NCBI GenBank assembly: GCA_020137815.1
Contig: CM035353.1
Coordinates: forward strand, 7,130,001 to 7,194,000
Length of the DNA: 64,000 nucleotides
Reading direction: 5' to 3'
DNA from: Hormiphora californensis
Lineage: Eukaryota > Animalia > Ctenophora
Numbering within the stretch: the stretch's first letter is position 1; each line of letters opens with the position of its first letter. The position numbers were made by a program, and so were the translations under genes. A model generated the notes under the pieces. That model was not told the origin of the DNA and did no database searches. It saw only the letters and a program-made list of their open reading frames with translations. Shown in pieces: positions 27,130-59,511 of the stretch.

Positions 27130-27133
27130 TTAA

Positions 27134-27602
27134 AGTGAGAGTGGACCGAATCAGAATTGGGCAAGTTTGTTGTAGGTAGTAGAGATTAGCTTTCTGAATA
27201 TTTTGCGTTTTTGCCGCTCAAAATCGACCCACCCATCACTGAGATATTTTTGTTATGTTGGGAGAACTCCTGTTTAATCAGTATGTATAAAACAGAATAG
27301 AAAAAATCGTGGTGTTTTACTAACACATTCTGAATATAATCAGTGAGGTTGACATGTCCATGCACAGAAGCAGGGCAATGCAAGCCAGCATATTAAAAAT
27401 TTAAAGAATGTGTTAGTAAAACACAAGGATTGTTTCTATCCTGTTTGATAAATATTGATCCAGCAGGAATTCTCCCAACATAACAAAAATATCTCAGTGA
27501 TGGGTGGGTCGATTTTGAGCGGCAAAAACGCAAAATGCTCAGAAAGCTAATCTCTACTACCTACAACAAACTTGTCCAATTCTGATTCGGTCCACTCTCA
27601 CT
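27134..27602. mobile_element. Kolobok-like foldback MITE sharing a TTAA with the preceding element
   Basis: ttaa|agtgagagtggaccgaatcagaatt...aattctgattcggtccactctcact|ttaa; arms ~195 bp. Confidence 0.85.
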
Positions 27603-35995: not shown

Positions 35996-36619
35996 CTTGT
36001 TTTAGAGGTAGAGGTCACAGTGCCAGCTATCCAAACTCCTCCCTGGTACATCATTATCCGTCAATCTTAATGAATACCATGGTATACCAATCAAACAAAG
36101 TTTCGTTTCTATATTTGATAGAATAATAAAACTAACAAGTTACACAGGATAAGTATCGGATAATTGTTTATGAGCCGCATGATAATTGTTTGTTGGGATG
36201 ATATCTCCTTCCGGCTTCAATCAATCAGGACAAAATGAAAAGCGGTGTTTTTATTAACGAACAGTTTCGATGTTACAACATCTTCCTCAGCCTACAAAAT
36301 TTGGAAAATTGGTTAAAATCAAATCACATAGCTGTACACACACTGCAATACTAATATAAGACTAAAAATAAAGTACTAAATAACTAAATAACTAAATAAC
36401 TAAATAACTAAATAAATAACTAAATAACTAAAATGGGTGGCTAATAACAAAATCTAATAATCTAAGTCTACAAATCTAAATATCTAAAATACCAAATAAT
36501 GATAACTACTCAACATCTCAAACCTGGGGAGGTGAGAAAAGATGATATTTAAACATCAACGCAGATATTTATACGACATCTTTTCTCTCTCTCTCTCTCT
36601 CTCACTCTCTCTCTCTCTC

Positions 36620-36693
<74 letters not shown>

Positions 36694-36826
36694 GACTCTA
36701 TCTCTTCCCTTCTATCTAAACTACTATCGAAAACTGGATCACGCGATCTAACTGGTAAAATAACGGACATAAAGAAATCAGATCTGAATAATTAATGAAA
36801 TACATAAATTAAATAAATTAAATAAA

Positions 36827-38745
36827 TTAAATAACTAAAAATCTGGTTAAATCTGTCATCTCTTCCTTTAAATTAATAGTCGGTTTCAATCTATGAATAA
36901 ATGACGCTTCAATAATTTTCCTGTATAACATTTTAGTCTCAGTTGCTAATATACTAAAGCTAAGATTCGGAGTGGTGTTCGGGTGGAAGGTACTGTAATG
37001 GAGTGCAAGGGCTTTCTCTCTGTACGACTTCGCTGAGGGAGAATTCGCACAGCGAAGATGCTCAGAGAGTCTTTCCTTGGCAGTCCTGCCCGTTTCTCCT
37101 ACATACATTTCGCCACATAACACACACTCAATTTTATAAACAGGGGCAATAATTTGACAATGTCCGTCTGTAAGGATAGGGCAAATTTTACAGTTCGCTA
37201 GATGGCAAGTTGGTAGTCCATCTCTAGGTCTAGAAGAGCAGAAGATCTCTCTCAACTTCCTGCCTGGCGTAAACACAATCTTGATGGGAAGGTTGTTTGA
37301 AATGACAAACCGGGTAACCTGGTCACTGAAGCCCTCAGTTATGTACGGTAGCTTTAGAATCACCTGTTCCTCTGTAGTCTCGTTCCGATGTTGATGGTTT
37401 GAGATATGGGTGTCGAAAGCAAAAGTACGGGGATCTGTGTATCCATTAGCCAGGAGCAGGTTATCCACTACTTCCCGAGACTGTTCAACATGTGATGGGG
37501 ATGAACTACGCTCTGCGGTATGATAGAAGTTTCTGGCAGTCTGGATCTTCATTCGGAGGGGGTGGTGGGATTTAAAGTGTAGAGTTATCCGTTTCCTCGT
37601 GGGCTTCCGGTAAAACTGTGACTCGATTTTATCATTCACCACCCTCACTTCCGTACCCAGGAAAGGGGTCCAATCTCCCTCCTTGTCAGGAAAATCTACC
37701 TCCCAAGCAATCAGGCCATCCGGGTCTTCCTTGCCTATGTTCCTAAACAGCTCCACCGCCTCTGTTCTAGATGATGCTAGGGTGTAGGCGTCATCTATAT
37801 ACCTCCCATAGATAGGGAGGAACTGGACATCAGCGTACAGGGTGCTTCTCTCGAACATGAAGACTCGGATGACCGCGGCGAATCTATCGGTTATCCCATA
37901 CTTTCGGGATCCCATACTCCTAATTAGAAGAAAGTATGGGATCTCGGACAATTGTTGTGGTCCCATACTTCCGAGATCCCATACTTTCGAAGTCCCATAC
38001 TTTTCGGGTGGGATTCACTAGATACTAATCCAATCAATAGAACGGTGTTTGGTATCGCTAAATTGGGTAATTTAAACCGAGTAATGTGTACATTCGTACC
38101 GTTTCACTATTTACGTTGCACATACACGGTGTGATTAGAATTTCGTGATCAGATGCTGAATGCTGATCAGATGGTAAATGAACTCGGATCACTTATGGAG
38201 TGCGATTACTTAGACAGGGTATCAGTCAATCAAGGTCTTGACAGGCCGATCAGATGGTAAATGAACCATGATTACTCACACTGCTAATAGGGCATGCCAG
38301 ATTCGTATCACATACATAATTAGAAAGTATGGGATCTCGGACAATTGTCGTGGTCCCATACTTCCGAGATCCCATACTTTCTCTCTCTAATTGGGAGTAT
38401 GGGATCCCGAAAGTATGGGACTAGGGTGATCACCGACCGCGGCGATGGGGCTCGGAGCACAACCCATGAAGAGTCCCTGGAGTTGTTTATACAGCCTCCC
38501 GTCATATGTAAAGTATGAGTTTAAGAGGACTGCATCCAGGATCTCGTGAACATCGACCAACTGTAGCCCCCTAAGATTCAAATGGTCGACGTTCTGCTCC
38601 GCGAAGTCAATGACAGATTTAATGCAGGCCAAAATATCTAGATTAGTGTAGAGAGCTGATATATCAGCTGTGCAAAAGTTGCGGCCTGATAGATCCCCCG
38701 GAGGGATCGAGCGCAGCGTATCCAGATGTTGGTGGATGTTGCTGT
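36827..38745 (-). pseudogene. Penelope RT + GIY-YIG endonuclease ORF, 5'-truncated and interrupted by a MITE
   Basis: TADISALYTN, YKQLQGLFMGCAPSPIAAV|IRVFMFE, YGRYIDD, PFLG, FYRKPT, PVYKIECVLCGEMYVGETGRTAKERLSEH, RKIIEASFI, PTIN. Confidence 0.92.
37882..38434. mobile_element. Mutator-like MITE inside the Penelope RT
   Basis: Target gaccgcggcga duplicated (37871-37881, 38435-38445); imperfect TIRs built of cccatact repeats; removal restores ...PIAAVIRVF... Confidence 0.75.
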
Positions 38746-39377
38746 TGCTCCTGGCTAATGGATACACAGATCCCCGTACTTTTGCTTTCGACACCCATAT
38801 CTCAAACCATCAACATCGGAACGAGACTACAGAGGAACAGGTGATTCTAAAGCTACCGTACATAACTGAGGGCTTCAGTGACCAGGTTACCCGGTTTGTC
38901 ATTTCAAACAACCTTCCCATCAAGATTGTGTTTACGCCAGGCAGGAAGTTGAGAGAGATCTTCTGCTCTTCTAGACCTAGAGATGGACTACCAACTTGCC
39001 ATCTAGCGAACTGTAAAATTTGCCCTATCCTTACAGACGGACATTGTCAAATTATTGCCCCTGTTTATAAAATTGAGTGTGTGTTATGTGGCGAAATGTA
39101 TGTAGGAGAAACGGGCAGGACTGCCAAGGAAAGACTCTCTGAGCATCTTCGCTGTGCGAATTCTCCCTCAGCGAAGTCGTACAGAGAGAAAGCCCTTGCA
39201 CTCCATTACAGTACCTTCCACCCGAACACCACTCCGAATCTTAGCTTTAGTATATTAGCAACTGAGACTAAAATGTTATACAGGAAAATTATTGAAGCGT
39301 CATTTATTCATAGATTGAAACCGACTATTAATTTAAAGGAAGAGATGACAGATTTAACCAGATTTTTAGTTATTTAA
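38746..39377 (+). pseudogene. Inverted duplicate of the Penelope 3' half (thumb + GIY-YIG)
   Basis: Translation identical to the minus-strand copy from LLANGYTDPR to DLTRFLVI. Confidence 0.9.
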
Positions 39378-39510
39378 TTTATTTAATTTATTTAATTTAT
39401 GTATTTCATTAATTATTCAGATCTGATTTCTTTATGTCCGTTATTTTACCAGTTAGATCGCGTGATCCAGTTTTCGATAGTAGTTTAGATAGAAGGGAAG
39501 AGATAGAGTC

Positions 39511-39610
<100 letters not shown>

Positions 39611-41409
39611 GAGAGAGAGAGAGAGAGAAAAGATGTCGTATAAATATCTGCGTTGATGTTTAAATATCATCTTTTCTCACCTCCCCAGGTTTGAGATGTT
39701 GAGTAGTTATCATTATTTGGTATTTTAGATATTTAGATTTGTAGACTTAGATTATTAGATTTTGTTATTAGCCACCCATTTTAGTTATTTAGTTATTTAT
39801 TTAGTTATTTAGTTATTTAGTTATTTAGTTATTTAGTACTTTATTTTTAGTCTTATATTAGTACTAGCGCACCCAGGGTTGCGCCCCCCCAAGCTTGCTG
39901 ATAGAATATGTCACGCACCCTACTAAGTGCGTGAGCACCCCACCCGGCTTCGCCGTGTGGTAAAAACATTTCAGTTTGATTTTTACAAATCCAAACAGTG
40001 TTCTATTTGTCGAGTGTTACCAATGGCATTGCCTTGTTTCTCACGTTTAGTTATTACCGGTAGTCACATAAATACGCATGATGGTTGAGCTTGGCCTTTG
40101 TGTTGTGGCAATTGGCAAAATTAAAATGAGCTCGGTAAAGAAATATTAAAATGAAAAGTTCAAGTACTGTACACTCAATGTCAAAATAGTAAAATATCAA
40201 TATCATCACGACTACCACAGTAGGTAGTACCACACCCAATATAATTAAAATTAATACAATCACAATGATAAATCATGACCGGAATCCTCTTCTGTTCACT
40301 CAAGATATAAAAATAAATTAAAAACACATACCTCATACAATAAAACATTCAATGTTAAATAGGTAAAACTTGTAGTTGCTGGAATAAAACAAACTAAAAC
40401 AAAGTCTCGAAATGCTGAAAACGGAATCTGTCCGAGTGCCGATTGGCCGTCAATTCAAATCCTCACTTTATTCTTCTTCATTATAGTGTTCATAATTTAT
40501 GATACCGTTATTGGCTTGGAGAATGGAGAGAAAGTATAGTCCTCTGAGTAAATAGTCTGGTAGTGTGATGAAGATGTTCCTGAAAAAAAAAGATGTTGAT
40601 GTGTTGGGGACTGGATGGGATAAAATAACCACGGGGTGAGTCGTTGTTACACTGCAGTGACATTGGGCGTAGCCTTTGGTGTGTGTGTGGGCCCCATACT
40701 ATGGGGTGTGTGTCTCATGGCCAATGCGTCATGACAACGAATGAATCCGAGTAGGAACTCCCGTGCGCGCGCAGTGCTGGAACATTGTTTTTTTCAGTCT
40801 TTTGCACGCGCGCGTTACAACTACGATAGACCACACAGAAGCTGTAGGAAGATGACGACATTATGATAACAGGAGCATGAACTTGAAAGATGTTCTACAT
40901 AAGTACCTGGTAAGGTGACATAAGTTTGTCCGCGGCTGTTAGAAGAGTGAATCAGTGGAAAACATGCTATGTGCAGATGGATGTTGAAGAATCACCTAAG
41001 GGATAAATCAATGTTAAAGACAGACACAGCAGATTAAAAACAATACCAAAGGTTGTGAACGGAGTAAGCAGAAAAAAACATTGTAGCTATTTACCGCAGT
41101 GGTAGGTGTGAAGGAGAGTATACATTTGTCTGTGACGTTGGTGACGTAGTGGTGATAATCTATCTCCGTCGTCTGGGTAGGGGAGAGAGGGACGTTTGTT
41201 ACAAAACAGAGAAAAATAGAAATTAGGCCAATTCGAATAGTTCGGATCATCGCTTACATGATAGAAATCAGATAATCGTTATCATTATCAAGGATGAGTG
41301 GTAAAAGTGGATGCGGACCAAAAGGGGAACCTGTAAGGGGAAAAGGATGCTGATAGGGTTAAAACTGTATATAGAAAATAAAAGAGAAATTGCTGGGGTA
41401 TAGAATTTA

Positions 41410-42463
41410 AACTATCTGGCGCCAAAAATATCTGGAAAGGGGAGGATTAATTAACGTTATAACGCCTGCAGTGTAAACCTTAGAAAGAATGAGGGAGCTC
41501 TGGAATTAGTAAAACCAACCTGCAACAACTGTCTCAGTGCGTTGGTGTGATAAGGCAGACGGTCCACAAAGGCAGGGACCCCATTAATTGTCTCTCGTGT
41601 AGATCGGCAAATTAACTCTTAATATTGGGGCGTACAGTGAAATCATAAACTGTATTCACAGTACAGGCGGTTCCGTTGGAAACCTTCTGAAAGGGTCCGT
41701 TAACAATGTGCACGTGAATGCCACTGAATCTCTTAGCACGTGAAAATGCGACTCCTGGCCCTGAGCTTTGTTAATGGTTAGAGCATAGGCCAGCCTTAGA
41801 GGGAATTGAAGTCTTTGCAATTTAAAAGGTAAGGCGATATCAGAGGCTGTTAACTTGATACGTGGTATGAATGCCTTCTTTCCTAAAAACGTAGAGTTAC
41901 CACTTATAACAGAAACTTCGATAACAGAGTTACCGAGTGATTCAATTCGTAGGCGGGTGCCGTTACAAAGACCTGATTTGGAGTCAAGGTTACGAAGTAA
42001 AGTCGGATTTTTTGAAATTGTCACCCCAAAATGACCGCGTATGTGAAATTTATCAATTTTGACTCGCACACCATACGTTAACATGTGATGTGACGCGCAA
42101 AAACATTCCACGCACGAAAAGGGGGGTGACAGTTTCAAAAAATCCGACTTTAACATTACAGTGCAGCCCTGTTTCAGTTTGAGACCGTGAGCGGGCATCC
42201 CACTGGGGTTAACGCTATTTAGAAACTCTGTGGTGAGGTTAGATATTTCGTTAGAGTCGTCCTCAATCACTGTATCAATACTTCGGTACTCTCTGGGAGA
42301 AGTGTTAGGCTCAAAGATGTTGAGAATCTTATCATTCAACTTATTCACATCCTGATTGAGAGGTGTTAGAACGAAAAAGCTGGTCCTGTCAACAGAAAAG
42401 TCAGGGAAAATAGAAGTCAAAATGCACTGGAGGGGATGTCAATTTGCATCCTGGTGGCATCTG
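41410..42463 (-). pseudogene. Second, diverged partial copy of the Helitron helicase 3' end and its trailer
   Basis: Similar to 52680-53215 joined to 48130-48572 (no hAT), with substitutions, a short deletion after KAQGQE and an in-frame MITE. Confidence 0.88.
42000..42150. mobile_element. 151-bp MITE, AAGTCGGATTTTTTGAA termini, TA TSD
   Basis: The empty site 'tacgaagtaacattac' is visible at ~52879. Confidence 0.88.
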
Positions 42464-42769
42464 GACAAAAAAAGGTGGCAAATTATTTTGTTAAATTATA
42501 GAGCAGAGTTGAAATTGGTGTTGTAAGTTGAACTGCCCTGAATACGCATGATATTTCGGATATTGTAAAATTGGCTGTGGCTTTAAAGGAGAGGTCAGGG
42601 ACATTTTAGTAAGATCTGTGCGCACGAAACACAGTATGCCATTGAGTACTTGTGAATTGAATTAAAAAATTCGTGTTACATTAAAATTCCACTTTTATCA
42701 ATTTTTTGAAAAATAATTACTAATTACAGAAAACATTACAGGGATTAATATATTGAGTTCACTCACGTC

Positions 42770-43364
42770 TCACATACTATAGTATGTCAGTGCCTCCTCG
42801 TCAGTGCTGTACTCCCTGTCTGATTCCGATGCGTACACATCAAACAGGGAGCACACCTCACTCTCATCATCCTCATCACTGTCATCTTCATCTTCGTCCT
42901 CATCACTATCTTCTCCGGCATCCAAATCTTCCTCTTGTTCGTCTAGAAGTGGAGCGGGAGGCGGGGAGGAGATGTCATCTGCATCGTCGCTCTAATGAAT
43001 GAGTATGATAATGTGCATCGTCGTGGAAATAATACGAAGTTTGGAAAAATGTTGTGGAAAACTGGAAATGAATATTAATACCGATGAAAAAGGGGAATCT
43101 AATATTCTCGCGGCTGACGTTGGGGAGATCATGGGAGCGGGAAGAGGGGAGCTGGAGGGAATGTCACCAACACTTGTCCCCGCAGTGTCTTCCTCATCGC
43201 TCTAATGAATGAGTATGGTATTTGGAATTGTGAAAAAATGTTGTGTAATGTGATTTTAAAAATGGGAAATAATTAATAGTTAGTACCGAAGTAAATGGAG
43301 AGTCCAAGATCCTTTCAACGGATCTAGGGGAGATTAGAGGAGGGGAGGCACCACTGCTGGACAT
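42770..43364 (-). CDS. Helitron-borne three-exon gene, 139-aa Ser/Pro-rich hyper-acidic protein; exons 43364-43287, 43201-43082, 42991-42770
   Basis: Phase-0 GT-AG introns give MSSSGASPPLISPRSVERILDSPFTS|SDEEDTAG...ISPTSAARILDSPFSS|SDDADDISSPPPAPLLDEQEEDLDAGEDSDEDEDEDDSDEDDESEVCSLFDVYASESDREYSTDEEALTYYSM*. An acceptor (ttctgtag) lies 14 nt before the ATG. Confidence 0.68.
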
Positions 43365-43534
43365 TTTTCACCGTTAAACTACAGAAATATAATGAGTAGT
43401 GTTGGAAATATAATGTTATAATACCATTAAATAGCGTCGTTTTAAAGTTTTTAATCCATCAGGAGTATTATAAAAAACGCGCAAAACGAACCGACTTTGG
43501 GAGATAGGGATCCCAAAAAAGTACACAGCGTTTA

Positions 43535-43688
43535 AAGTCGGATTTTTTGAAATTGTCACCCCAAAATGACCGCGTAAGTGAAATTTATCAATTTCGACTC
43601 GCACACCACACGTTAACATGTGATGTGACGCGCAAAAAAATTCCGCACACGAAAAGGGGGGGGTTGACAGTTTCAAAAAATCCGACTT
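43535..43688. mobile_element. AAGTCGG-family MITE copy (partial copy follows at ~43703-43765)
   Basis: ta|aagtcggattttttgaaattgtc...caaaaaatccgactt|ta. Confidence 0.85.
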
Positions 43689-44855
43689 TAAACAGTTGAA
43701 AAAAGTCGGATTTTTTGAAGTTAAAAAAATAACCGCGCATGTGAAATTTATCAATTTTGACGCGCAAATTTTACAAAAAAAAGTAACACGCAGATCTTTA
43801 TGAAAATGCGCCGCAATTGTGCGCGCGTGGTGTAGTCAAAATTTTCAAATAAAACATTTTTTTCATCTCAAAAAACCAAAACTTGAAAAGTTGGCATGCG
43901 CTGCAGACCCCAAGTGCGCACGTTTTCCAGGGCTTCTGTAGCATAGGCCAACTTGAAAAGCTTCGTTATATCACACCGCGTTTGGTTATGAAGTTGTTGG
44001 TTATGAAGTTGTCACCTCCTTTGCGCGTCACATAACATGGTTATGCGTGGTGCAGAGTGCATGTGAAAACTGGTAAACTTTACATGCACGGTCATCTGGG
44101 GGAGGGTGACTTTATGATTGGCATATTTAAGCCCTTGCCAGCACAGAGTCACATACCGACGATGGCAGACATGATAGTCATGGACGTATTTACTTTGCCT
44201 TGTGCTCGTCTGCAGTCGGTTAGCAAGTACTAAAGTCAGGGTGATTGGCGTGCCATCACCCACCGTTGTTCTTATGCTATACCAAAACTAAAATGGGCCT
44301 TGTTTCACGCGAAAGGATTTCAGACCGCCATAGCTCCACCCCCTGATAAAATAGATACTTGATAATTGTTTTGTAAGGAGATCATGTCTCTATCTCATCA
44401 GGGAGTTGAGCTATGACCGTGGGAAAACCGAAGTGAGGCTCATTTTCCGCATATAGTCAAATTTTTTAATCAAGGGATAGTAGCAGTACATTTACAAAAG
44501 CTGTTTTGCGTGCACTAAACATCTTCGCTCATATCTCCTGATCTTGATATGATAAAGACTTGGTCTTGGTTGCGTCGAAAAGGTGTTAAAATTATATTTC
44601 TAACGCTTCCGGGTTCAAGTCTTAAGATTGCTAGGAACTTTATCTCGACTATCACCCGCAAATACAAAGCGACCCCTTTGCGTGCGTGGCCCCCTGTCCC
44701 TTGATTAAAAATTCGACTTTACCTTTTTATATTCAACTGGTCCTTTCAATTAGTGGGCGGATTTGTTTCATGTGTGGTGAGTGTGTTAAAGAGTGGGGTG
44801 AGCACATACCATATATGTTGTTTGGGAGAAGCCCTTCCTGTCATAGTCAGGGTTA

Positions 44856-45005
44856 AAGTCGGATTTTTTGAAACTGTCACCCCCTTTTCGTGCACGGAAT
44901 GTTTTTGTGCGTCACATCACATGTTATCGTGTGGTGTGCGCGTCAAAATCGATAAATTTTACATGCGCGGTCATTTTGGGGTGACAACTTCAAAAAATCA
45001 GACTT
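44856..45005. mobile_element. AAGTCGG-family MITE copy, opposite orientation
   Basis: ta|aagtcggattttttgaaactgtc...caaaaaatcagactt|ta. Confidence 0.82.
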
Positions 45006-45156
45006 TAGTGAGTCTTTTATGAGTTGCTGTGGTGTATGAGTTTGTGTCATGTGTGTGTGCGTGTGTTGTGAGATGTCATTGGCTAATGCGCGCAAGTGAA
45101 ATTTTAATTCTAACGTAGGTGTGTTCTCTTCCTTACAAATATGTTTCATGTTAGCA

Positions 45157-46221
45157 ATGTCTGATTCTGATGCCAGCCCCAAGAGCCCGTCCACCGGCGA
45201 TAAGGGAAAGAAAAGAGCCGGCACCAAGCAGGACCCCGGCAGGAAGCGAAGGGCGTAAGTGTTACTTAGGGGATAGCGGGAAGAGAATAGGGGGAAGAGA
45301 ATGGGTGAGGTAGAATCAAGTTAGGTAGAAAAATGGATAAATAGGGTGATTAAATACACAATTATCTGCCATGGGTATCAACTTGACTTGGTTTAACAGT
45401 AAGATAGGATTGAGGGGGTGTGGATAAGGGTTAGCCCAAAATTAAAGTCATAATTCTGTCACCCAACGTGACATTTTAACAGTGTTAAAATGGTGCGTAT
45501 GATTGTTAATGTGGGAATAAAGATTCAAAGATTCAAAGATTCAAATTAAAAAGTACTTAACAATAATATTATTGTCGTATAACTATAAAAAAGTGGGAGT
45601 AGGAGGGGTAGAGAGAGGGCTCAGGGGGGGTTGAGAGGAGAGGTATGGTGGGCGGTGGTAGTGTGTGTATTATGGGTTGATGATGGTGTGAATTAGGTGA
45701 GAGGAATATAGGGGATATAATTTTGGCAGCCGCCGGTGTGTCTGGAAAACTAAGATTTTAATTTTGCCGTAGGTGTTGCAGGTGACATGCTTTATATGAG
45801 AGGAGGAGGGGGGGGGCTATGACGTACAAACAATGCGATGTATGTCGGAAGGGGCGGGGGTCACAGCAATAAAAATCAGACTTCAGGGAGGGCAGTGTTT
45901 TAAAACTAAGTAAACGTACAGTTCCCCTGTTCTTGGAAAGTACAGTTTCTCATCAAAATGTAACACATATACACTGTTTCAGGTACATAACGAATGTATG
46001 CCCGAACTTCCTGCATGGGGTCTCATGCTTGGTGCCGGGGTGCGCCTTTGTCCATCCCCTTGGTAAGTGAATATGCGTAAACGTAGGTGTAATGAAATGG
46101 GTTTTGGAAATGGCTGTTGCAATGTTGATGTAGGGTCATTGTGGGAGGTTAATGGAAAAACAAATGAATTAACAACCTACCCATTTCAGAGGAGTTCGTG
46201 ATCAAAAGAAGAAGGAAATAG
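45157..46221 (+). CDS. Helitron-borne three-exon gene, 69-aa basic CCCH zinc-finger microprotein; exons 45157-45254, 45983-46062, 46190-46221
   Basis: gtaagt donors and tttcag acceptors, phases 2 and 1 compatible: MSDSDASPKSPSTGDKGKKRAGTKQDPGRKRRAYITNVCPNFLHGVSCLVPGCAFVHPLEEFVIKRRRK* (C-x8-C-x4-C-x3-H). An acceptor (atgttag) lies 2 nt before the ATG. Confidence 0.72.
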
Positions 46222-48572
46222 ATTTATTATTGATTAATTATTGATGTATTATTATTTGTATTTTTTTTGTTCTCTTTTGTAAATTTTATGTGCTTTTATT
46301 GTGAAGATAAAATTAGTTAGGCCCCTGGTACAGGTAGAAACGCAAATTCATGCTTCATTAATGTTAACTGACATTGGGGTCTAACTAATGGTCGGAAAGG
46401 GGCTGATAATTTACTGAGATCTGAAATCGTCTGTCTCTTAAGAGAATTCAGCCGATTTTTGGGATGTGTTGCTGAATATGAAATCTTGGGACGGATCTGG
46501 CGCGCGAAATGTTGTGATGAAAGCACACAAACGTTTCATTGACAGTAACAGAAAGAGGCGACGCGCACTCCCAAAGAGTAGATGTGAGATGGGTGGTTGG
46601 AACTAAAATGAAAGGAGTGGTAGGTGTCAATCAAGTCAACCTAATACATTTTACGGAGCGCCAGGGTAGATGCCACAATTAGCAGGTCAATATTAAACAT
46701 GCGTGTTTATGTCCCATCCGGTGCGAAGTAAATGACAACTTCATGTGGTGGATCTTGGCGCGAAAAACAGTCTAACTTGGCAATTATTGGACATAGGACT
46801 CAGTGAGGTGCATAGTAGGTTACATAATCAGCGTTATATCCAGCGACACATCCCACAAATCATTTAAATACGCATGATGTCAGAGGGACGTTCGAACATG
46901 AATTAACTTATACCTATTACGAAGAATAGTATCCTGAACAAAGGCGGCTACCATCAATTCGCTGACGTTGGTGAAAGTAACGAATCTGAAAGTAGTTGGA
47001 GGAAGGTAGACAGAAATACCGGACAAATTGGGAACGAAAGAGACAATACTTGGGGTGTATGTGTGTAGAATAGCTTATTACAAAGTAATAAGTTACCTGT
47101 GGAAAAGATGAAAAAGCGTAAAGTTGGAACTGTTTACAGCCAGACTCAGGTTGATAAACGGAAATCTGAAAAGTCACGGGAGTAGCAGATAGAGAAGCAT
47201 TTTGAGCGGGGAAGTAAAGAGTGGTAAGCGATGAACAGTACGACACTTACACATGACAGGGCGGAGGTGCAGTACAGAAATAAGATAATTGAACAGTCAG
47301 GGTAAGTGCCGTGACCTGAAAAGGAAATATGAGTAGCAGCAACACGACACTTATGAAAGATTCATGGGACGTGAGACTATTTATGTGGGAGGGGAAATGT
47401 ATGAGTGTGTAATGTGCAATGCTTGAGAATTGGGATGTATTCGTAGAGAATAATGAGTTACCTGTCAGAATAGTAGAAAGGGAAAGAGTTGAAACTGTTT
47501 GTAGTTTGGGTCATGGTGATAAAATGACATCTGAAAATACATGGGAGTGGAAGGTAGAGAAATATATGGAAAGGGGTGGCAAAGAGTGGTGGAAAGTGTA
47601 ATACTTACAAATGAATCGGTGAATTGCTTCAGTACGGGGTAGAATTGTTGAACAGTCAAGTGTTGTAATCTGAGAGGGAAATTGTGAGATTAAAATAGAT
47701 GTAAGGTAACATATGCACTTTATAGTCCAACAAAAAAGATAAGATGAAATCAATACCGGTGAAATGTAGTAACTGGTAGAAGGTGACGTGACGCAGGTTG
47801 CTGTTGGCAGTGTACTGTTGGCAGTTGTTAATGAATCAGATGAAACGAATATGATCTGAAATCGGATGAAAGTGAACAACACGTTGAAACAGAGCGGTAG
47901 AGAGGAAGGAAATGAGACACGAAACTTACAAAAGAAATGGTGTGGTTCCGGAAGAAAAGATAAACTGGCTAAAGTAGTGACTTCAAGATGTTCTATCTGA
48001 GAGGGAAGGTACAAATGAGTAATGTAGGTGGGAAAAACTGGTGCTGTGAAATCTGAAATTTTGCAAATTTCCGTTCCATTACCATGTAAAGGTTGTAAAG
48101 AGAAGCAGCGGTAGCTGTAGATCGCGTTAAAAATTATCTGGTGCCAACAATATCTGGAAAGGGGAGGTTTAATTAACGTTATAACGCCTGCAGTGTAAAC
48201 CTTAGAAAGAATGAGGGAGCGCTGGAATTAGTAAAACCAACCTGCAACAATTGTCTCAGTGCGTTGGTGTGATAAGGCAGACGGTCCACAAAGGCAGGGA
48301 CCACATTAGTTGTCTCTCATGTAGATCGGCAAATTAACTCTTATTTTTGGGGCGTGCAGTGAAATCATAAACTGTATTCACAGTACGGGCGGTTCCGTTG
48401 GAAACCTTCTGAAAGGGTCCGTTAACAATGTGCACGTGAATGCCACTGAATCTCTTAGCACGTGAAAATGCGACATATAACTGCCCATGGGAAAACACGG
48501 GGGAGGGAAGGTAAATCCCGACAGTTTCAAACTCCTGGCCCTGAGCTTTGTTAATGGTTAGAGCATAGGCGA

Positions 48573-49448
48573 TAGAGTGTTGGGTTTTGAAATCATTTTT
48601 TTGGCATAGCAATGACTAGACGTATTTTTTCACGCTGATTCCGAATCTGTCATCAGATTTGATCTACGATAACGTCATCCCTTTCCGCGGTCCTTTTAAA
48701 GGAACTTCTATTGCGCTGCGTTTTAGTGCTGGCACTATATCACGTGATCTCTCGCTAATTAGCTGCGCTCTCGATCTTACACGCGAGCGCACAACTCGGG
48801 ATGTGTGAGAGCCCCGTTACGGTCAAGATTGATCGGGACATAGCCGACTATTATACCAGTAGTTTGAGCTATATATAAAATTTCCGTTTCAATTGCCTTT
48901 TCCGGACTGTAAAAATGATCCAAGAGAGTGAAATGGGCAATTAAGCCCACACAATTTCCTGAAACTGAACCTGGGATCAAGATCTAATAAACCGGATGTC
49001 TTCCAGTTGGGCTATTACAAATCCGTTGGGTAAGTAGGATGTACCCAATCTTAATCACTTTGAGCCGGGGCTATATGTCTCAAACACGTGACATACCACG
49101 TGTTATGAGATCGGGATTTGTAGTTGCAATGTTTGCTCGAGAAGTTATTCACAGTTTGACAACCTCTATGACGTTTGGAACTTTTAACGATTTTATTGGG
49201 TGCGACAGGATTGACCCATTGCAGCCACATCTTGTAATAACCAAGCGGAACGCTCTTGCCCATTACCTTGCTGTTTTGACTGAGGATCAGCTCGCCTCAG
49301 GAAATAATCGAGTGCCAACTGCCAATGCTCTTACCCAGACTGCACATGTTGTTTTGGAGCTTTTTTCAAACAACGGTGCAACTACCGTGACAGAGAAATC
49401 CATTAAAAAGTAAGGGGGAACATGGTGTCTGATCGAAACTAAAACAGA

Positions 49449-49529
<81 letters not shown>

Positions 49530-51324
49530 TGAGAGTGTGTGAGAGAGAGAGAGGGCGATGGAGAGAGTATTACTTTTGATCATATTTTAGGTCCTTGACC
49601 AACTTGATTAACGAGACCAAGAGAGCAAACAAATGGAGATGTAATCAGAAGAAAAATCAGTACGAAATGGATTTGATGTCAGATCTATTTATGTCTAGCA
49701 GTCCGTTCTTTGCAAAGGTATATATTATACATGTTATCAGTTTGAATCAAACTTGAATTAATGCTGTAGTTGTTGTTAAACATCCTTTACTTTACTTGGT
49801 AATGTTATTCTGTTATTCAGACAGTGCCACGAACTAAATCACCCATTGTGACCCCTACATCTGCATCCAGTCCTTCCCAAAGCTTCAGTTCAACAGATAC
49901 TCCTAAGAGTATTAGATTCAGGCCCGCTCGTTCTTACGTTACAGATGTAAGTTGCCAACTAGTTACAGTATTGTTGAAACGCTTATAAGTTTGAAACTCT
50001 TCAATACTATATAAGATGTATATGTTTAATACCCGTTTAATAGTCTAGCCTTATCTTACTATCTGAAAGAGATAATGAATCAAATCTCTAACATTGTTGT
50101 CTCATCTCAGGTGGAAGATAAGGTTGATGATAGGGACCATAATTCTGCCAAGGACCCGGAGTTCAGCTATACCGATACATCTTCTGAATCTGATCAGGGC
50201 AGTAGTGACAGTGACATTAGTGATTCTGAAAATAACTTACAGACCACTCCTAATAAACGATATTCAAAACGACGTTTACAAAGCACGCCTATAGTTAAAC
50301 ATGATTATAAATATTATGCTAGGGTAGCTGCTGTTGCCATGCGATTTGGCAACAGCCCCGAAAATGCCGCCCAATACTGTACAGAAATTCGTAGGACGGA
50401 CGCTCTAGCAAATGGGGACCCGTTCTACGAAGTGGTGACGTCAGACAAAATGAAAAATGCCATGGAGTTTGTCCGAACTGGAGCAGTGAAAGCGCTAGTG
50501 GGAAAGAAAGTATACGGTAAGTGGTTTTACTAATAGTAAGTGGTTTTACTAATAGAAGAAGAAGAACTATTCCCTATTACTTCCAACATTAACCCCTAAC
50601 TCCCTGATTTATCGCACCTTTATTTGTTTCCATCAGCTATATACGCTGATTGTAAAGAGGATAAGCGAACTGCTGTTCTGAACAAGCAAGATAACCGAGG
50701 AAGGGTCGAACACACTGCAGAGACACACGTGACAGTAGTTATCTATGCTGGAGATGAGAAAGGTGATGTTCAGCGAGTCTATTGTGGCTGGGCAGTTCCA
50801 AAGCCAGCTGAGAGAGCACCTTTGAACATGAAGCGAAAGAAGAAGAAGGGTGAAAAGTCTACCAAAGCTGAGAAGAGATTGGAAAAAGCTAATAGCATCA
50901 CTGGTAAGTTAAAGCAGTTGTTTTTCCACTTCAAACAGTTTCACCTTAACTCCTTTTCACTCTATTATATACTTTTGTATCAGTTTTATGTGTTTCTAAT
51001 CCGAATTTATCCATACAGGAAGCAGAATCGCTGCGGAGTTGGTAAACTACCTAGAAAGTTTGAGCCTGGACTTGTCTGACGTGCGGGTAGTCGGTTGTGA
51101 TGGTACATCAGTCAATACAGGTTAGTTGAATAACATACTATTTTAATACTAAACATTAGTCAGGGCTGAATCTATCGATCTCAGTATTTGTTTAATCGTC
51201 CTTATTTCCTCGAGGTATTCATAAGGGGTTCATGACGGAGTTACAAACAATGGTAGGCCGAAAACAACTCCAGTGGTCTGTGTGTTTACTCCACCAATTC
51301 GAACTCAACATGAGGTATTACAAA

Positions 51325-51409
<85 letters not shown>

Positions 51410-52672
51410 TCATTTTAACATGGATTTATTTAACCAGGGCAGTGTTTGAAACGCTTGATAAACCGGCAGATGGACCAGATTCATACCCCGGAACCGTTGG
51501 AAGGCGCATTGAGAACGATGCTGAGCTACAGCTCCATGGAATACCAGTCAGGGGGGATTTCGTCCCTATTCCAGTGGAGTTTGCCCTGATGCCGGATGTT
51601 GTTCTCACAACCCTAAATCAGGACGCTCAGAAGCTGCTGAAAATGTGCCACTATGTGACGCAAGGTAAATTAGAATTATAGATTATTTGAGTAGCAACAA
51701 GTTGAGAAAGTTCTAATTTTTTATTGTTTCGCTGACAAAATCTAACTACAATACTTGTGTTCACAGATCCGGCAGCATTCCCCCAAATTCTGGCAAGGCA
51801 AACTATCGGTAATGTCCACTCTGCCAGATGGATGAATCTTGGGACCAGACTCATCCGCCTGTATGTCACCATGACTCCCTCAGATCCAGATTACACTGCT
51901 GTTCGGGACCTTGTGACGTTTATTACCAGCTACTATGCTAAGGTTAGTCGGTCATTAATTGGGACGTATAAACCAATTATTCACGAAGCTCCAATCAGAT
52001 AATACAATTTCATAATCTGGAGTCTCCATTTGGTAACAAAATATACTGCTTCAGCTGTTTTCGAGTGTGATGTATAACTGGAGAATAGAACAGGGAGCGG
52101 CCCACATTCTACGGGCAGTTCAGCTATCACGGGAGATGGAGAATGTTCGTCAGAGGAAAGCAGTTCAACATTCTCTCCAGAATAACCCATACTTTGGACA
52201 CCCAACTAATGTACTGTTAGGGATGCTAGGTAACAAACAAAGTGCCAATTGATTTACACATAAAATTGTTAATGATAAATACATCGATTTGTTTGTGTCA
52301 CTGTCATTACTATAATTTTTCACAGGTAATGAAGATGTTGCAGTCAGGCGACAGGCAATATTGATAATAGAGGAAATCCGAGCGCTACCAGTAAACCGGA
52401 GTGACAGGAAATTCCATAAACCTAAACTGAATTTTAAGGCAGAATCACTTTTTGACCTTACTATCCTCAAGAAGGTATGTGACAACATTAACATTAATAT
52501 ATGTTTAGTAAAAACTAATTAAAACGCAGCGCAATAGAAGTTCCTTTAAAAGGACCGCGGAAAGGGATGACGTTATCGTAGATCAAATCTGATGACAGAT
52601 TCGGAATCAGCGTGAAAAAATACGTCTAGTCATTGCTATGCCAAAAAAATGATTTCAAAACCCAACACTCTA
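48573..52672 (+). mobile_element. hAT-superfamily DNA transposon (4100 bp), ~150-bp TIRs, 8-bp TSD ATAGGCGA
   Basis: ataggcga|tagagtgttgggttttgaaatc...gatttcaaaacccaacactcta|ataggcga. Confidence 0.93.
48800..52474 (+). pseudogene. Multi-exon hAT-type transposase, 3'-truncated (5' exons approximate)
   Basis: Spliced motifs IYADCKED, VVGCDGTSVNTG, LQWSVCLLHQFELNMR, GPDSYPGTVG, HSARWMNLGTRLIRLYV, NNPYFGHPTNVLLGML, RRQAILII. The last donor (52475) runs into the TIR and no catalytic Glu exon is visible. Confidence 0.75.
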
Positions 52673-55600
52673 ATAGGCGAGCCTTAGAGGGAATTGAAGT
52701 CTTTGCAATTTGAAAGGTAAGGCGGTATCAGAGGGTGTTAACTTGATACGTGGTATGAATGCCTTCTTTCCTAAAAACTTAGAGTTACCACTGATAACGG
52801 AAACTTCGATAACAGAGTTACCGAGGGATTCAACTCGTAGGCGGGTGCCGTTACAAAGACCTGATTTGGAGTCAAGGTTACGAAGTAACATTACAGTGCA
52901 ACCCTTTTTCAGCTTGAGACAGTGAGCGGGCATCCCACTGGGGTTAACGCTATTCAGAAACTCTGTGGTGAGGTTAGATATTTCGTTAGAGTCGTCCTCA
53001 ATCACTGTATCAATACTTCGGTACTCTCTGGGAGAAGTGTTAGGCTCAAAGATTTTCAGAATCTTATCATTCAACTTATTCACATCCTGATTGAGAGGTG
53101 TTACAATGACAGAGCGGGTCCTGTCAACAGAAAAGTCAGGGAAAACAGCAGTCACAATATCATTAGTTACATTGCACTGAGGGGGGATGTCAATTTGCAT
53201 CCTGGTGGCATCTGGATGGGTACTACACAAAGTACCATCACCAAGCTGCAAAAGCCAATCTTTAAACTCGAGTTCAGACGGATCTGCTCTTACATTTACC
53301 GTTAAGTCCAGGGGTTTCACATGATTCCATAGTGGGGAATTGAATGCACAGTTCTCTAATATGCCTTTAACAGATGATTTAGGGGTCACGGGTAGAGTCT
53401 GGCGAAAATCACCTGCAAGAACAATTAGTTTGCCTCCAAAGGGAACACTGTTGCCAGTGATGTCCCGGAGGAGAACATCTATTGCACGAAGGGCATGAAG
53501 GGGGATCATGGACGCCTCGTCAATGAAAATCATACTCAGAGATCGAAGATATTCTGCCTGCTTGGAGGTAGGTTTAACATCGCATACAGACGTACACGTA
53601 ATTGGAACAGGTAACTTGAACATGGAATGAGTAGTTACCCCATCTTCCAACAGAGTGGCAGCAATCCCAGTCCATGCACAATTTCCAAACTTAAGACTGT
53701 GTCCTTTACAGTAGGTAGACAATGTGTTGGCGAGGAATGTTTTTCCACAGCCACCGGAAGCGTAAATGAAGTATAGACGGGGTCGGTCCAAACAACATAC
53801 ATTACCATATGAGTCGAGCTCGTGCTTTAGCGTATCTGCAATAAAACGCTGGTCTGTGTTAAGCATGTCCCAAGCGTCTTCAGCATCTAACATGTAGTCA
53901 AACTCGTCTCGGCTGTCATTATCAATAGCTTCCAGAGACGGCATAAAATCAGGTGATACAATATTAAAATTAGATAGGGGTACCCTGTAATTTCTCATTA
54001 GTAGGTTGTTCATATCATAGCGTGCCCTGCGAGAAGCTTCACGCTGTGTCAAACCGTGAAAATGCACATAGTCCTCACTGAGGTCATCTTGAAACCAATC
54101 CCACAAATCTTTGGCTTCAGGGGGGTTGCAGTTGGCCAATAAAGTCACAAACAGGAACCGGAGTTGGGCAGGCATTGCAGTAACACTGGCCTCCTCCAGA
54201 CAGTTGAACCACTCATCATTGGACTCCAAGAGACCATGGGCACGACACGCCTCTTCAAAAGTGTAGTAAACGGTATCATTATACGTTCTCAAATCTTTAA
54301 AAGAGGTCGCTCCCCTCACACGGAGGAGAAGTAAACGAAGGTAAAATCGCTCAAGGTCACGGGGGGTAACATAATACATACGGGGGATAATTTTCAAAGA
54401 GTCAGGATCCCCGATATTATTCTTACGCTTAGTGAAGCCCTTGGCACGCTCATAAGTATAGTGATAGGGTATCTCTACGTACAGGTACTGCCGGGCAACA
54501 CTATCCTTAGCATTTAGTGAAAACCAATGGGTTAGTGTTGTACCTTGTTGTCGATCCAACACATCTTCGGGTAACTCATTGTCCCTAAAGTACACAACTT
54601 CCTGATTAGGCAGGTGAACAGCAAGTCGTTGTACAGCATGGCTTCTCGAGGCCAGAGACAGTTCCCTAATACGCCACATAGCTTCGGGAGCACTGATATA
54701 TCTGCAGTCAACAAACTCTTTTATTTCGTCAACCTGATCACGGGAAGACTTTTCAATGTGGGCACAATCATAACCCTTGTGGATGTATTTAAACATGTAT
54801 TTAATGGTCTTTACAGACATACACGCCTCAACATTGATATGAGCATTAAACTTGTAAAGGAGGTAAGGGTTATAAGGAACAACATGGCTGTTGTTGAATT
54901 CTTTACCATTCTTAACAACAGTTCTACCGTTATCAGGACGCTTGTACTGAACACGTCCGTCATTGTTAAACGTAGTCACATCGGAAAACATTTTCGGAAA
55001 ATCTTTGGAGCACTTTCCGTCTTGCTTACACCTTGTATCACTACACTCATGGAGCATAGACGTAGTAACAATTTTATGTAATTCAGGTTCTGTAACGGGG
55101 TCAGGAATGTCAGCCCTGATATACTTATCGATATGCTCTACAGCTCTGAACTTGTAGCCATCCTTTAGCCAAACCGCAATGTGGGTGTGAGGAAGGCCAC
55201 GCTTTTGAAATTCAATAACTCCAGATACAGCTTGCTGCTCTCCAAAAGCGACCTTAAGGTCCTCATGAAACTCTTTTAAATGGAGGTTAAAAGCGGCCGC
55301 TACAATATCAGGCCTATCAGACGCAGTAAGGGGTGTGTCACTGCTCACACGATGGACAGTGGAGGTTGTACCATCTTCATTCTGTACCTGGAATCCCTCG
55401 TTACCAAGATTTGTTACAATATCAGGGTGTTTGGGGTTACATGTAAACGTGATAAATAGATCAGGCTTAGAAAACTTGGCTGTCATGGCCATTGAGTCCT
55501 GGTACTGTTGCTGCATCCAGCGCTTACCTCCTGTAAAGGACGAAGGCAGTACAGTGGGAACGCCAGCAGACAATCCAGTAGGGTTTATCTGTTCGGATTC

Positions 55601-55809
55601 GTGATGTTCCATATAACCTTCAGCAGTATCCTTACGGTAACTGAACTTATCTTGCATCTTAGTGCTGCGCAAATAACCCAACCTGCCAGACTCGATTCGT
55701 ACCTGACAATCTACAACATACTGTTGAAACAGTTTTCTACTGTAGTGTAATGGTGAGAATGGTGTAGCTCTAAAAGCAGTGCGATACTGAGCAAAGTCCA
55801 ATTCAGTAA

Positions 55810-56032
55810 GGGTCCAGTTAGAGATTTTGCGACTGACGTTAGTTACAATGAAGCAGGCCCCTGCTGACACTGCTGACACTGCCGCGCGTGCTACTTTAGA
55901 TGCAAATCACATCGAAAACCCTGCTAGTCAACGAAGATTTGGCGCGCACAGGGACTCTCCCAGCTTGCGCCAGTTGCAGACTGGAGGCTGGCGCCAGAAA
56001 CTGGAGCCAGCCTCCAATCTGCAACTGGAGCG
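55810..56032. mobile_element. PIF/Harbinger-like MITE with TAA TSD inside RepHel
   Basis: taa|gggtccagttagagatt...aatctgcaactggagcg|taa; excision restores RGKVTELDFAQYR. Confidence 0.8.
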
Positions 56033-58221
56033 TAACCTTACCACGGTTACGTCGGTGGATATCGGTAGTCCACCCCTGCTCACCTTGGGGAAATAAAAGG
56101 GGGTAAATCATAGGGTCAAGATGTTGACTACAATGGCTTATTTGACTCAAAGAGAAATCAAGTTTCAAGGGGAATTGAGTCCTAGAGAACGGCACAGATT
56201 GACACACACTGTTAAACGTCTGTCGAGGAACAGAAACAGACTTATTACCACGATCAAATGAACATTGGACAAAATCACGACTAATACTTTTAACAGTCAA
56301 ACGTGTGTTAGTAGTCACGTTAGAAACACCGGGTATTAATGACAACAGTCGAACACAACAACCAATTTTGAGTGTCAACTTGTGTCGTGGTATGTCGGCC
56401 AGGTCCACCCGGTGTAAATCATCAACAGTTGCGCCGGTGGAGTGGGGTCCACAGAAGGCGTCATCACTGAGTTGTACATAGGAGTCCTTTTTAATAGAAT
56501 CCAGAGCATGTTCAGCATCGGTATACACCGTAAATCCTGGCATTTTCGGCAATCCAGAGCTACCATCAAATACCGCCGCCACATCCCCTTCATGGATTGG
56601 TTCATTGTATCTCTTCGGATCGCTTCCTCGGCGGAAGTACATAAAGACTGATTTAGATTCAGTATCACCGGCTCGTGCCTTCATATCTCGCTCAATGTCT
56701 GCCATTCGAATGAAGGCGGCTCTATACGGGTTATCAACATTTGACAACACTCGAGAGACCAACGACATGAGGCTCTTTGAGCAACCACTGTTGAAAGGGT
56801 TGTTCACACGTGCTTGTTCAGCACCACTGCCCTCAAGGACATACAACTGGCAGTACGACGGATTTGAATCGTGAAGGGTACTGACACAGTATCTAATATC
56901 TCCGTGAACACGGAACACATACGGACCTGGCCCCAGTAGTCTGTCTTCGTTACAGTTCATAGACGCAAAGGCGAATGCCGAATTAAAATTTCTAATAAAG
57001 TCATGAAACTTACGGGGATGAACAGTAAACGCTGGGTCGGTATTATACCCGAGCAATAGGTCCTTAAGCTCCTCTGGATAGGGCTTCAAAATGGAAGGAG
57101 TCGGGATCAGTGTCTTGCCATTGCTGCAACACGTGTCGCTCCTTCCCAACTCACGTTCAAATAGCAGCGCGCCACAGTCTTTTGTGCAGGGCTTATCACG
57201 TAAACCTGTAGTAAAAGGGTCGGGGCGGTTATTAATATCAACAGCACCCCTTTCAAGCTGATCAAGTAAAGAACGTCGCTCTCGCGCTCGTCTCAAATCC
57301 CTTTGGCGGGCGTTTCGCTCGGCACGCTCTTCAACCGTTAGGGCAGCTGCCCGTACACGGCGGGTGGCGTTAACAGTGACGGCATTAGCCGCATGATACT
57401 GCCTTTGATACTCATTTGTTGCGTCGGCAGTAGTAGCACGGTTCTCCCTCCGAGACTCGTTGATACTCTCGGCATTTTCAGCATGATGCTGCCTCCGCGC
57501 CTCATTATCAGTATCGGCATTTTCAGCTCGCCGTTGTCTCCTGGTGGAATTGATAGAGTCAGCGTTTTCAGCATCACGGGCTCTCCGGCCACTATTCAGT
57601 ACTTCCCTATCGCTATCACTCATGCTATCAGAAGAGTCACTATACTGTGCTCGACGGGACTCCAATTCCAATCTGCGGTCAGTACTGGTCTGCCGTTCAC
57701 GGCGCTTAGCATGTGTACGCTGTTTTTCACCGCGTCGCAATTCTAAAAGAATGTTATTCAGCACATTCTGATGGTTAGGGTGCTGGCCAATCTCCTCATC
57801 ATCGGAAGAAGAAGAGCTCTCGATAACATTGGCTGCACTCCGATTGTTTAAAAGATTTCTGCTGGTTGTAGGTTGTTCGTCATCGATGTCGGTGTCTGGC
57901 ATTGTTTTAAAACGAAACAGGATGACTTTTTTGTGTTTTTGAAACTTTTTGAGTGAAAAAAGTTTTTTTTGGAAAAATTGATTTTTTGATATTTTTGACT
58001 GCGAGCGCGCGGCGCTAGGCTGTTAAAAAACGCGCGCGCACGTTTGCGTCGTATTACCACGCACTTCGCGTGTGCGCGCAAAGTTTGCTAAAGGAGCAGA
58101 CTGTCGCTTAGATACCGCCTAACGAACGGCCACCACTTCGACGTTCATCTCCAAATTATAATAGAGATTGCAGTGTGTGTACAGCTATGTGATTTGATTT
58201 TAACCAATTTTCCAAATTTTG

Positions 58222-58262
58222 TAGGCTGAGGAAGATGTTGTAACATCGAAACTGTTCGTTAA
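58222..58262 (+). ncRNA. Candidate minimal type-I hammerhead ribozyme in the Penelope terminal repeat (second copy on minus, ~36254-36294)
   Basis: CTGAGGA-a-gatgtt-gt-aacatc-GAAAC followed by aataaa, in sense orientation downstream of the GIY-YIG ORF. Stems I and III are weak. Confidence 0.5.
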
Positions 58263-58869
58263 TAAAAACACCGCTTTTCATTTTGTCCTGATTGATTGAA
58301 GCCGGAAGGAGATATCATCCCAACAAACAAAACTAACAAGATGTGATGAAAAAAAGGGAAAAAAAAGATGATAAAAAGATGATTTAATGATGAGTCAACA
58401 AATTCTGATAAAATGAAGAAACAATGATAATTGACAAAATTAATCATATATAATAGTCACTCGTTACGTCTACTGAATTTGACTAAATAAAGCCTATCTT
58501 CTTCAGATATTCAAAACATCTACGGCCTACACTCGATTCTCTCTTTTCTCACGTGGATTATTAATTATTTATTCAGTCTAAAATAGATCCTTTTTTGATA
58601 AACGCAACCGTGTGAAGGAAACTCGCACATAGTTTCATATCGTTACTCCTCTTTGTGTATATTGTGTCAAGACATTAAGCAAATTGTCTCTCTCCACCAG
58701 CATGTCAATATCCTTATTAAACTCGGAAAGGCTTTCCCGGGCGTGAGTTCCACACAGGACCATGTCCGAGTGTTGGTCGATTTCATAGTATTGAAAGTGA
58801 ATTTCATTGATATAAAGAAATTATAAAGGCTTGGTAAGGCAAACACATCATAGTAAACATATTGCACCA

Positions 58870-59511
58870 CTAAATATACAAACATACCGTTTTTAATTCG
58901 ATATCAATATCCCCTCTTACCGATGACAAATCATCCTCCACCATAGCTGGGAAATCATGCGGGAGTGGCAGTTCCCAGATGGACATCAGGCACGCCACCC
59001 GGAGTGACTCCTTAATCCCTCCTCTTCCTAGGAGCGCCTCTAACTCCTCGTCCTCCCACGGGAACAGTTCCAGGTGCCTCGCTGCTTGGCCGGCCATCCT
59101 GAAAGACGAATTAGGTTTAGCTTTCAATACATCCATCAAAACTCTGTGAATGTTTACTCTCCATAGCTGAATCTTTTCCTTAAGGAGGGTTGGTCCATTT
59201 ATTATAATTGCCCTCCTTGATGACAGACTCCACTGCCTTCCCACGTCAGGAGACTCAGTACTATGACCATGATATCTTCAGATAAGACATGGCTTTAATG
59301 CATATATATATATATATATAACCTTTATATGTATAACCTTTATATTAACTAAATTAATTAATCATAACATAATTGGATCTAAATCTTTTCCTTCTGGGAG
59401 CCGGGTGGTCCTCCTTGTTCTCTTACAGACTGAACTGCATGATAACAGCTCTTCCCACGTAAGATAACTCAAAATTATCACCAAGATCTCTCCGGGCAAG
59501 AGAATTAACAT
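58870..59511 (-). pseudogene. F-box gene remnant(s)
   Basis: MLILLPGEILVIILSYLTWEELLSCSSVCKR (59511 downward), a second eroded copy LSEDIMVIVLSLLTWE at ~59240-59290, then an ~110-codon open segment. Confidence 0.65.

Follow-up and report, generated by a model that had tools for sequence, protein, structure and literature searches.

What are two small spliced reading frames doing inside an animal Helitron: do they serve the transposon, are they passengers taken from the host, or are they not genes at all? The question is raised by a 64,000-nucleotide (nt) stretch of the ctenophore Hormiphora californensis (assembly GCA_020137815.1, contig CM035353.1, positions 7,130,001 to 7,194,000 of the forward strand), hereafter called the window. 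It holds an 18.3-kb Helitron on the minus strand (39864 to 58167), with TC at 58167 as its 5' end and CTAG at 39864 as its 3' end. From 5' to 3', the element is made up of the replication-helicase gene RepHel, a region that we call unit C, gene B on the opposite strand, a divergent interval, gene A, a partial helicase copy, and a 3' region. The original prediction, made from the letters alone, had placed the pair A and B here and read it as a possible accessory module of the element (for anti-silencing or RNA handling, or as an opposite-charge effector/inhibitor pair) rather than captured debris. We consider it quite likely that both are real genes. That they are accessory genes inherited with the Helitron family and kept for the element's benefit is the explanation to which we tentatively lean, at a little short of an even chance.

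Structure and coding evidence of genes A and B

Gene A lies on the minus strand and gene B on the plus strand, head to head. Three stop-free exons of 78, 120, and 222 nt, all in phase 0, encode the 139 amino acids (aa) of protein A: exon 1 (43287 to 43364, with the ATG at 43364) carries the first copy of a repeated motif, exon 2 (43082 to 43201) the second copy, and exon 3 (42770 to 42991) an acidic tract, a hydrophobic tail, and the TGA stop codon. Gene B, likewise stop-free over three exons, encodes 69 aa, with an ATG at 45157 and basic clusters resembling nuclear localization signals in exon 1 (45157 to 45254), a CCCH-like finger in exon 2 (45983 to 46062), and a basic tail followed by TAG in exon 3 (46190 to 46221). 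All introns are of the GT..AG type, and the lengths, coordinates, and four junctions given at the outset (43287/43201, 43082/42991, 45254/45983, and 46062/46190) proved right, as did the compositions. Protein A is rich in D/E and SP (41 D/E, 29 S, 14 P, and no K; net charge, -37; 7 SP/TP and 13 CK2-like sites), and protein B is rich in K/R (15 K/R; net charge, +9). Each gene looks complete, with a start, a stop, and a plausible intron in its 5' untranslated region (UTR). Splice sites were ranked with a matrix trained on the hAT transposon and RepHel introns of the window (11 donors and 10 acceptors). The predicted 5' UTR intron of A (43379 to 43424, minus strand; 46 nt) has a donor in the top 8% and an acceptor in the top 11%; the corresponding values for B (45115 to 45154, plus strand; 40 nt) are 10% and 24%.

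The main evidence for coding comes from a duplication within A. Exons 1 and 2 each close with a copy of one duplicated unit, which takes in the intron position; its 26 codon pairs differ at 5, 6, and 19 first, second, and third codon positions, respectively. The proportion of synonymous differences (pS) is 0.90 and that of nonsynonymous differences (pN) is 0.22 (Fisher p=2e-7); for the 19 exonic codons alone, the values are 0.87 and 0.16. Four of the five other frames are without bias, and the antisense frame whose third positions coincide is biased more weakly (p=1e-4). The acidic tract also varies mainly at third positions, with G at position 1 in 23 of 28 codons, A at position 2 in 22 of 28, and all four bases at position 3. 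Because the duplicated exon shows such an excess of pS over pN, it is very likely that A is a genuine coding gene, and we conclude from these substitution patterns that it is, or was, translated under purifying selection.

The introns of A hold further clues. Its two coding introns are identical in their last 18 nt although synonymous sites have come close to saturation, a pattern in keeping with constraint or conversion. The motif TACTCAT stands 13 to 24 nt before all three A acceptors and before two acceptors of unit C, together five of its six minus-strand occurrences in the element (two of those in A are mutual duplicates). This sharing hints at an origin of A inside the element and at growth by exon duplication.

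We also considered A as a ligand of the Rb pocket AB groove, of the E2F/E1A type, and rejected it: residue 112 begins only a partial motif, VCSLFD, against the LxDLFD given in the available text of PMC10767929 and PMC3245074 (LxxLFD in a 2011 list), and no LxCxE is present. E2F-like sites number six in the window; four fall in the element, all outside the interval between A and B.

For gene B, the grounds are weaker than for A, and it is probably a real gene. Its finger has the spacing C-x8-C-x4-C-x3-H, no other C-x7/8-C-x4/5-C-x3-H occurs when the window is read in all six frames, and the exon that carries it is flanked by an acceptor in the top 3.2% and a donor in the top 0.8%. Among 400 Markov-resampled Helitrons, 3 had a looser motif flanked on either side by top-5% splice sites; the thresholds were set after the data had been seen. 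Against 1.84 billion representatives, the sole match of exon 2 was a tandem CCCH protein, P0145 (E=1e-9, summed over seven stretches); solved structures gave weak matches to the fingers of Nab2 and MEX-5, and the Atlas returned CCCH clusters (first match, 0.85), which we treat as a lead only. The finger shares its spacing and the usual aromatic and glycine positions with the Nab2/ZC3H14-type (PF14608) and TIS11/MEX-5-type (PF00642) families. It differs from these proteins in standing alone in 69 aa, in a spacing that lies between both types, and in a Pfam score below the cut-off.

Could one or both frames be chance GT-AG matches that are never spliced? The coding acceptors of A are weak TAG sites (only in the top 63 to 70% of AGs, with donors in the top 20 to 39%), and the rate at which B-like exons arose in the resampled Helitrons is small yet not negligible. 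Chance would not explain why the frame-specific synonymous excess in A runs on across the duplicated intron position, and retention of A intron 2 would terminate in an in-frame TAG. We therefore regard chance frames as very improbable.

The distance between the two genes, given originally as about 1.8 kb, is 1,792 nt between the ATGs (43365 to 45156), of which about 454 nt are left after removal of three inserts that belong to one terminal inverted repeat (TIR) family at 43533 to 43691, about 43700 to 44722 (ends approximate), and 44852 to 45007; about 1.3 of the 1.8 kb is thus inserted sequence. Contig depth over the bins with these inserts is very high. CGCG motifs lie at 43478 and 45088, near either end of the interval. 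Across the window, 44 of 57 overlapping positions of CGCG-type motifs fall inside the Helitron, including upstream of RepHel, A, and B, a distribution compatible with shared promoters.

The same very high-copy TIR family supplied four inserts, flanked by TA/TTAA, within 3 kb: the three in the interval and a miniature inverted-repeat transposable element (MITE) at 41998 to 42153. A 16-nt internal motif of that MITE recurs at 45089, upstream of gene B.

Related sequence in other copies

Contigs of six of the seven sequencing runs compared carried the stretch or part of it, and two samples, S1 (runs X1 and X4) and S2 (run X5), are considered here. The window itself may come from sample S1, and this sample gives no independent support; it has contigs that match the window exactly over gene A (42712 to 43329 in X1), along with variant contigs. 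At 42803 and 42806, in A exon 3, and at 46120 and 46124, in B intron 2, X1 and X4 show both the window letter and a variant, and X5 shows the variant only. X5 was without coverage at 42940 to 43263 and at 46828 to 47475, and over the first of these stretches the depth in X1 was only that of the window's own contig; uncovered parts do not enter the evidence. Both changes in A are synonymous (two of the two displayed A coding variants). Variant depths in X5 are similar (about 330 to 430) at the A tail, the B intron, RepHel, and the 3' end, a weak hint, depth not being copy number. Because contigs of the second sample carry diverged relatives of the A 3' end and of the B region, A and B probably both belong to the Helitron family. 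The contigs over the A/B region are short, and none places A, B, and RepHel together on a single molecule. No run listed as RNA was among the seven; run X7, presumed to be RNA, gave only five short partial pieces of less than 95% likeness, which say neither way on expression.

One X5 contig bridges the 3' end of A to the adjoining helicase fragment (42821 to 42436). This fragment (41409 to 42465, minus strand) is a second, decayed partial copy of the RepHel C terminus, with 16- and 58-nt deletions and the MITE mentioned above; it has 9 synonymous and 19 nonsynonymous changes in 229 codons. Its decay is near-neutral, while A and B remained open.

The bridged junction bears on whether A is instead the front of a fusion gene, in which a donor at 42777, in the last codons of A, would be joined to an acceptor at 42461, at the start of the fragment, so that a helicase 2B/2A half would gain an acidic head. 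The donor ranks in the top 4.3% and the acceptor in the top 1.8%, with compatible phases. In the window copy, however, the fused frame meets a frameshift and stops about 14 codons past the junction, and the fragment evolves near-neutrally. On these two grounds the fusion is largely rejected, and its probability is very low.

Accessory module or captured genes

In single-exon searches, A had no homologue and B no specific one. A exon 2 had no relative at E<=10 among 107 candidates of 71 to 2,000 aa, a weak negative with the nearest named host protein only 53% identical; A exon 3 had no usable Atlas match, and in Pfam only composition-type matches at E>=0.16. No relatives were found in four of four scans of viral contigs or in prokaryote genomes. 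An OB-fold (RPA-type) domain was without a Pfam match in the five of six A and B exons scanned, B exon 3 (10 codons) being too short.

Several observations, along with the weak acceptors of A, weigh against an accessory module. The Pfam match of B exon 2 to zf-CCCH_2 (PF14608; E=0.003) reaches 18.5 bits against a cut-off of 25.8. None of 80 distant Helitron loci from metagenomes (those kept of 177; 32 to 43% identity, mostly short) had the pair, the strict CCCH pattern, or a tblastn match better than E=0.67, and, judged by these loci, Helitrons do not generally carry the pair. The variant evidence covers 40 of 337 variant rows, with two variants in the A coding sequence and none in B exons. 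The X5 contig over the A tail ceases to match at 42821, with 33 letters left over, the end being assigned by a convention taken from another record, and A may differ upstream of that point in other copies. The selection on the A repeat is old, its synonymous sites being near saturation, and could predate capture from a host gene.

The state of RepHel also matters here. The original prediction had contrasted intact microgenes with disrupted RepHel copies nearby. This description suits the second, partial copy. The only lesion of the main RepHel is a hAT insertion, and with the hAT removed the frame is open over 1,759 codons. The intactness of A and B is for this reason only weak evidence of selection, and the copy may just be young. 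The idea of a module rather than captured debris gains little from this contrast, and it draws more on the constraint in A and on the related sequence in family copies, which fit a module better.

Part of the evidence would suit exons that are slowly decaying remnants of longer genes, a finger from a tandem CCCH protein and part of a disordered protein, with accidental starts and stops. Most CCCH proteins have tandem fingers, so a single one is unusual, and the match P0145 has several; other decayed pieces are present in the element, and upstream of 42821 the X5 contig departs from A. Yet each frame begins with an ATG and closes with a stop, a plausible intron lies in the 5' UTR just upstream of each, and both displayed coding variants are synonymous. 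We judge decaying remnants to be improbable, although less so than frames that arose by chance.

Capture poses a stronger challenge: an ancestral Helitron may have taken up a complete head-to-head host gene pair, whose members would now be passengers and whose constraint would stem from the host. Helitrons are known to take up genes of the host, and fragments (PMC6431247, PMC12001565); in Xenopus, the available text of PMC12001565 reports 19 captured fragments. The saturated synonymous sites in the A repeat, which imply a long coding history, would agree with this. Capture of full-length genes is nevertheless described as exceptionally rare in the accessible part of PMC6431247, A exon 2 is without a relative in the search above (weak, as noted), and the introns of A share a motif with those of unit C. 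We hold capture to be unlikely, if more plausible than decay; if it occurred, it would be a rare case of the capture of a full gene pair.

If A and B are accessory genes of the family, a regulatory role is conceivable. Both would be transcribed, in two directions, from one compact promoter of about 450 nt. Protein B would enter the nucleus by means of its basic clusters and would bind RNA or single-stranded DNA, the usual ligands of CCCH fingers. Protein A would be a disordered, phosphorylated adaptor in which the repeat ISP...RILDSPF, with SP and CK2-like sites on its flanks, is a conserved binding element; this motif and the acidic tail would recruit a host factor as a free activation domain does. 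Such a cassette of basic finger and free acidic domain would raise the expression of the element or shield its single-stranded intermediates. That the specific role of the pair is to boost the element's own expression is a conjecture that we consider rather unlikely to hold as it stands.

Small DNA viruses offer an analogy. The geminivirus regulator AC2/TrAP and the acidic regulators of small DNA viruses combine, in a rolling-circle replicon, a basic nuclear localization signal, a zinc finger, and an acidic region. Here, these features would be split over two spliced genes, and the likeness is an analogy only. A ctenophore Helitron clade could have evolved a regulatory cassette of viral likeness, two genes on a bidirectional promoter that jointly turn the element on: B would bind the element's RNA or single-stranded DNA, and the lysine-free A would hijack a host regulator by its tandem motif. 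This proposal is more speculative still, and we think it unlikely.

Extra genes borne by Helitrons are already known as a kind, and the A/B pair is a further variant. The HELPO1 Helitrons of Pleurotus carry transcribed orphan cap genes of unknown origin (PMC4289320). Like A and B, these orphan genes are whole and lie downstream of RepHel in copies of the autonomous type, with few or no database matches; unlike A and B, they are fungal and their transcription is shown, and a divergent acidic and CCCH pair is not among the features described in the portion of that paper available. RPA-like single-stranded-DNA-binding proteins are found in Helitrons of plants, cnidarians, and fish, and OTU and AP-endonuclease domains occur in Helentrons (PMC6431247, in part). 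The present Helitron resembles these elements in having coding capacity beyond Rep and helicase, but A and B have no OB-fold, OTU, or endonuclease match and are tiny, spliced, and divergent. Among other DNA transposons, VANDAL elements encode an accessory protein besides the transposase, as the present Helitron may, and their anti-silencing proteins VANC21 and VANC6 are model transposon anti-silencers (PMC6719617, in part). A and B gave no VANC-related match in the Pfam scan and belong to a different superfamily and kingdom.

In the open-access literature searched, no listed paper dealt with ctenophore Helitrons or with a CCCH or acidic accessory gene encoded by a Helitron. The self-regulation of Helitrons and their avoidance of silencing are poorly understood; the accessory proteins named in the accessible part of PMC6431247 are RPA, an OTU protease, and an AP endonuclease. 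Within the literature searched, a regulatory cassette, if true, would be without precedent in an animal Helitron as an accessory system dedicated to regulation or counter-silencing. Genes A and B are two small, easily expressed candidates for transposon-encoded regulators from a very early-branching animal lineage, and two spliced microgenes that are invisible to open reading frame finders suggest that such cassettes are missed systematically.

The Helitron and its surroundings

The exact bounds of the Helitron, as originally claimed, were upheld. The element has the 5' TC and 3' CTRR termini, sits between a host A and a host T without target duplication, and has, as its candidate subterminal 3' hairpin, a GC-rich inverted repeat directly before CTAG (seen by eye). 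It splits one arm of an inverted repeat whose arms are 98 to 99% identical, and the other arm provides the empty site, near 36349. Because of this near-identical empty site, the insertion is taken to be exact and recent. Rfam gave no matches across 39000 to 59000.

RepHel (48320 to 57902, minus strand) consists of exons 57902 to 56042 and 55860 to 52673, separated by an intron (56041 to 55861), with a remainder from 48564 to a stop near 48325. Its product matches PF14214 (E=3e-43), PF05970 (E=9e-47), and PF21530 in Pfam and so combines the HUH Rep and Pif1 helicase required of a Helitron. The insertion inside RepHel (48573 to 52672, plus strand; 4.1 kb) is bounded by identical TIRs of 153 nt, with a target duplication of 8 nt, and is presumably a DNA transposon of the hAT superfamily with hATm-type likeness. 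Its transposase is a spliced frame of nine exons, open over about 580 codons and running into the right TIR region. Contigs of the sequencing runs span the hAT site joined, from which it follows that an uninterrupted RepHel exists.

Residues 532 to 623 of RepHel (window positions 56430 to 56150, minus strand) form an additional, N-terminal module of Pif1-2B-like type, which shares 33% identity with the protein's own C-terminal one (E=5e-10). The test for this module was passed by 6 of 120 RepHel relatives, all within the 11 best matches, and the module may serve as a clade marker.

Behind the RepHel stop, unit C (46920 to 48085, minus strand) has seven candidate introns and tandem-like small predicted exons of 61 to 99 nt. 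Its donors are mostly good, and the exon phases yield no long frame; it is possibly a spliced 3' UTR, a noncoding RNA, or a decayed gene. Near the 3' end of the Helitron, a region at 40700 to 40830 contains CCAAT and two CGCG clusters that resemble those upstream of gene B, with no clear frame behind them.

The window is repeat-rich animal DNA. The inverted repeat at 36349 to 39863, with arms that are 99% identical and that each hold a GIY-YIG-like frame (E about 2e-4, below the cut-off), is presumably a Penelope-like element. Several long, nested, nearly perfect inverted repeats with arms of 200 to 460 nt lie at 20218 to 27607. At 6584 to 7543 (plus strand), a frame of 319 codons corresponds to a queuosine salvage gene (PF10343), whose nearest named relative, from Bolinopsis microptera (53% identity), points to a ctenophore as the likely host and is followed by named matches at 40 to 43%.

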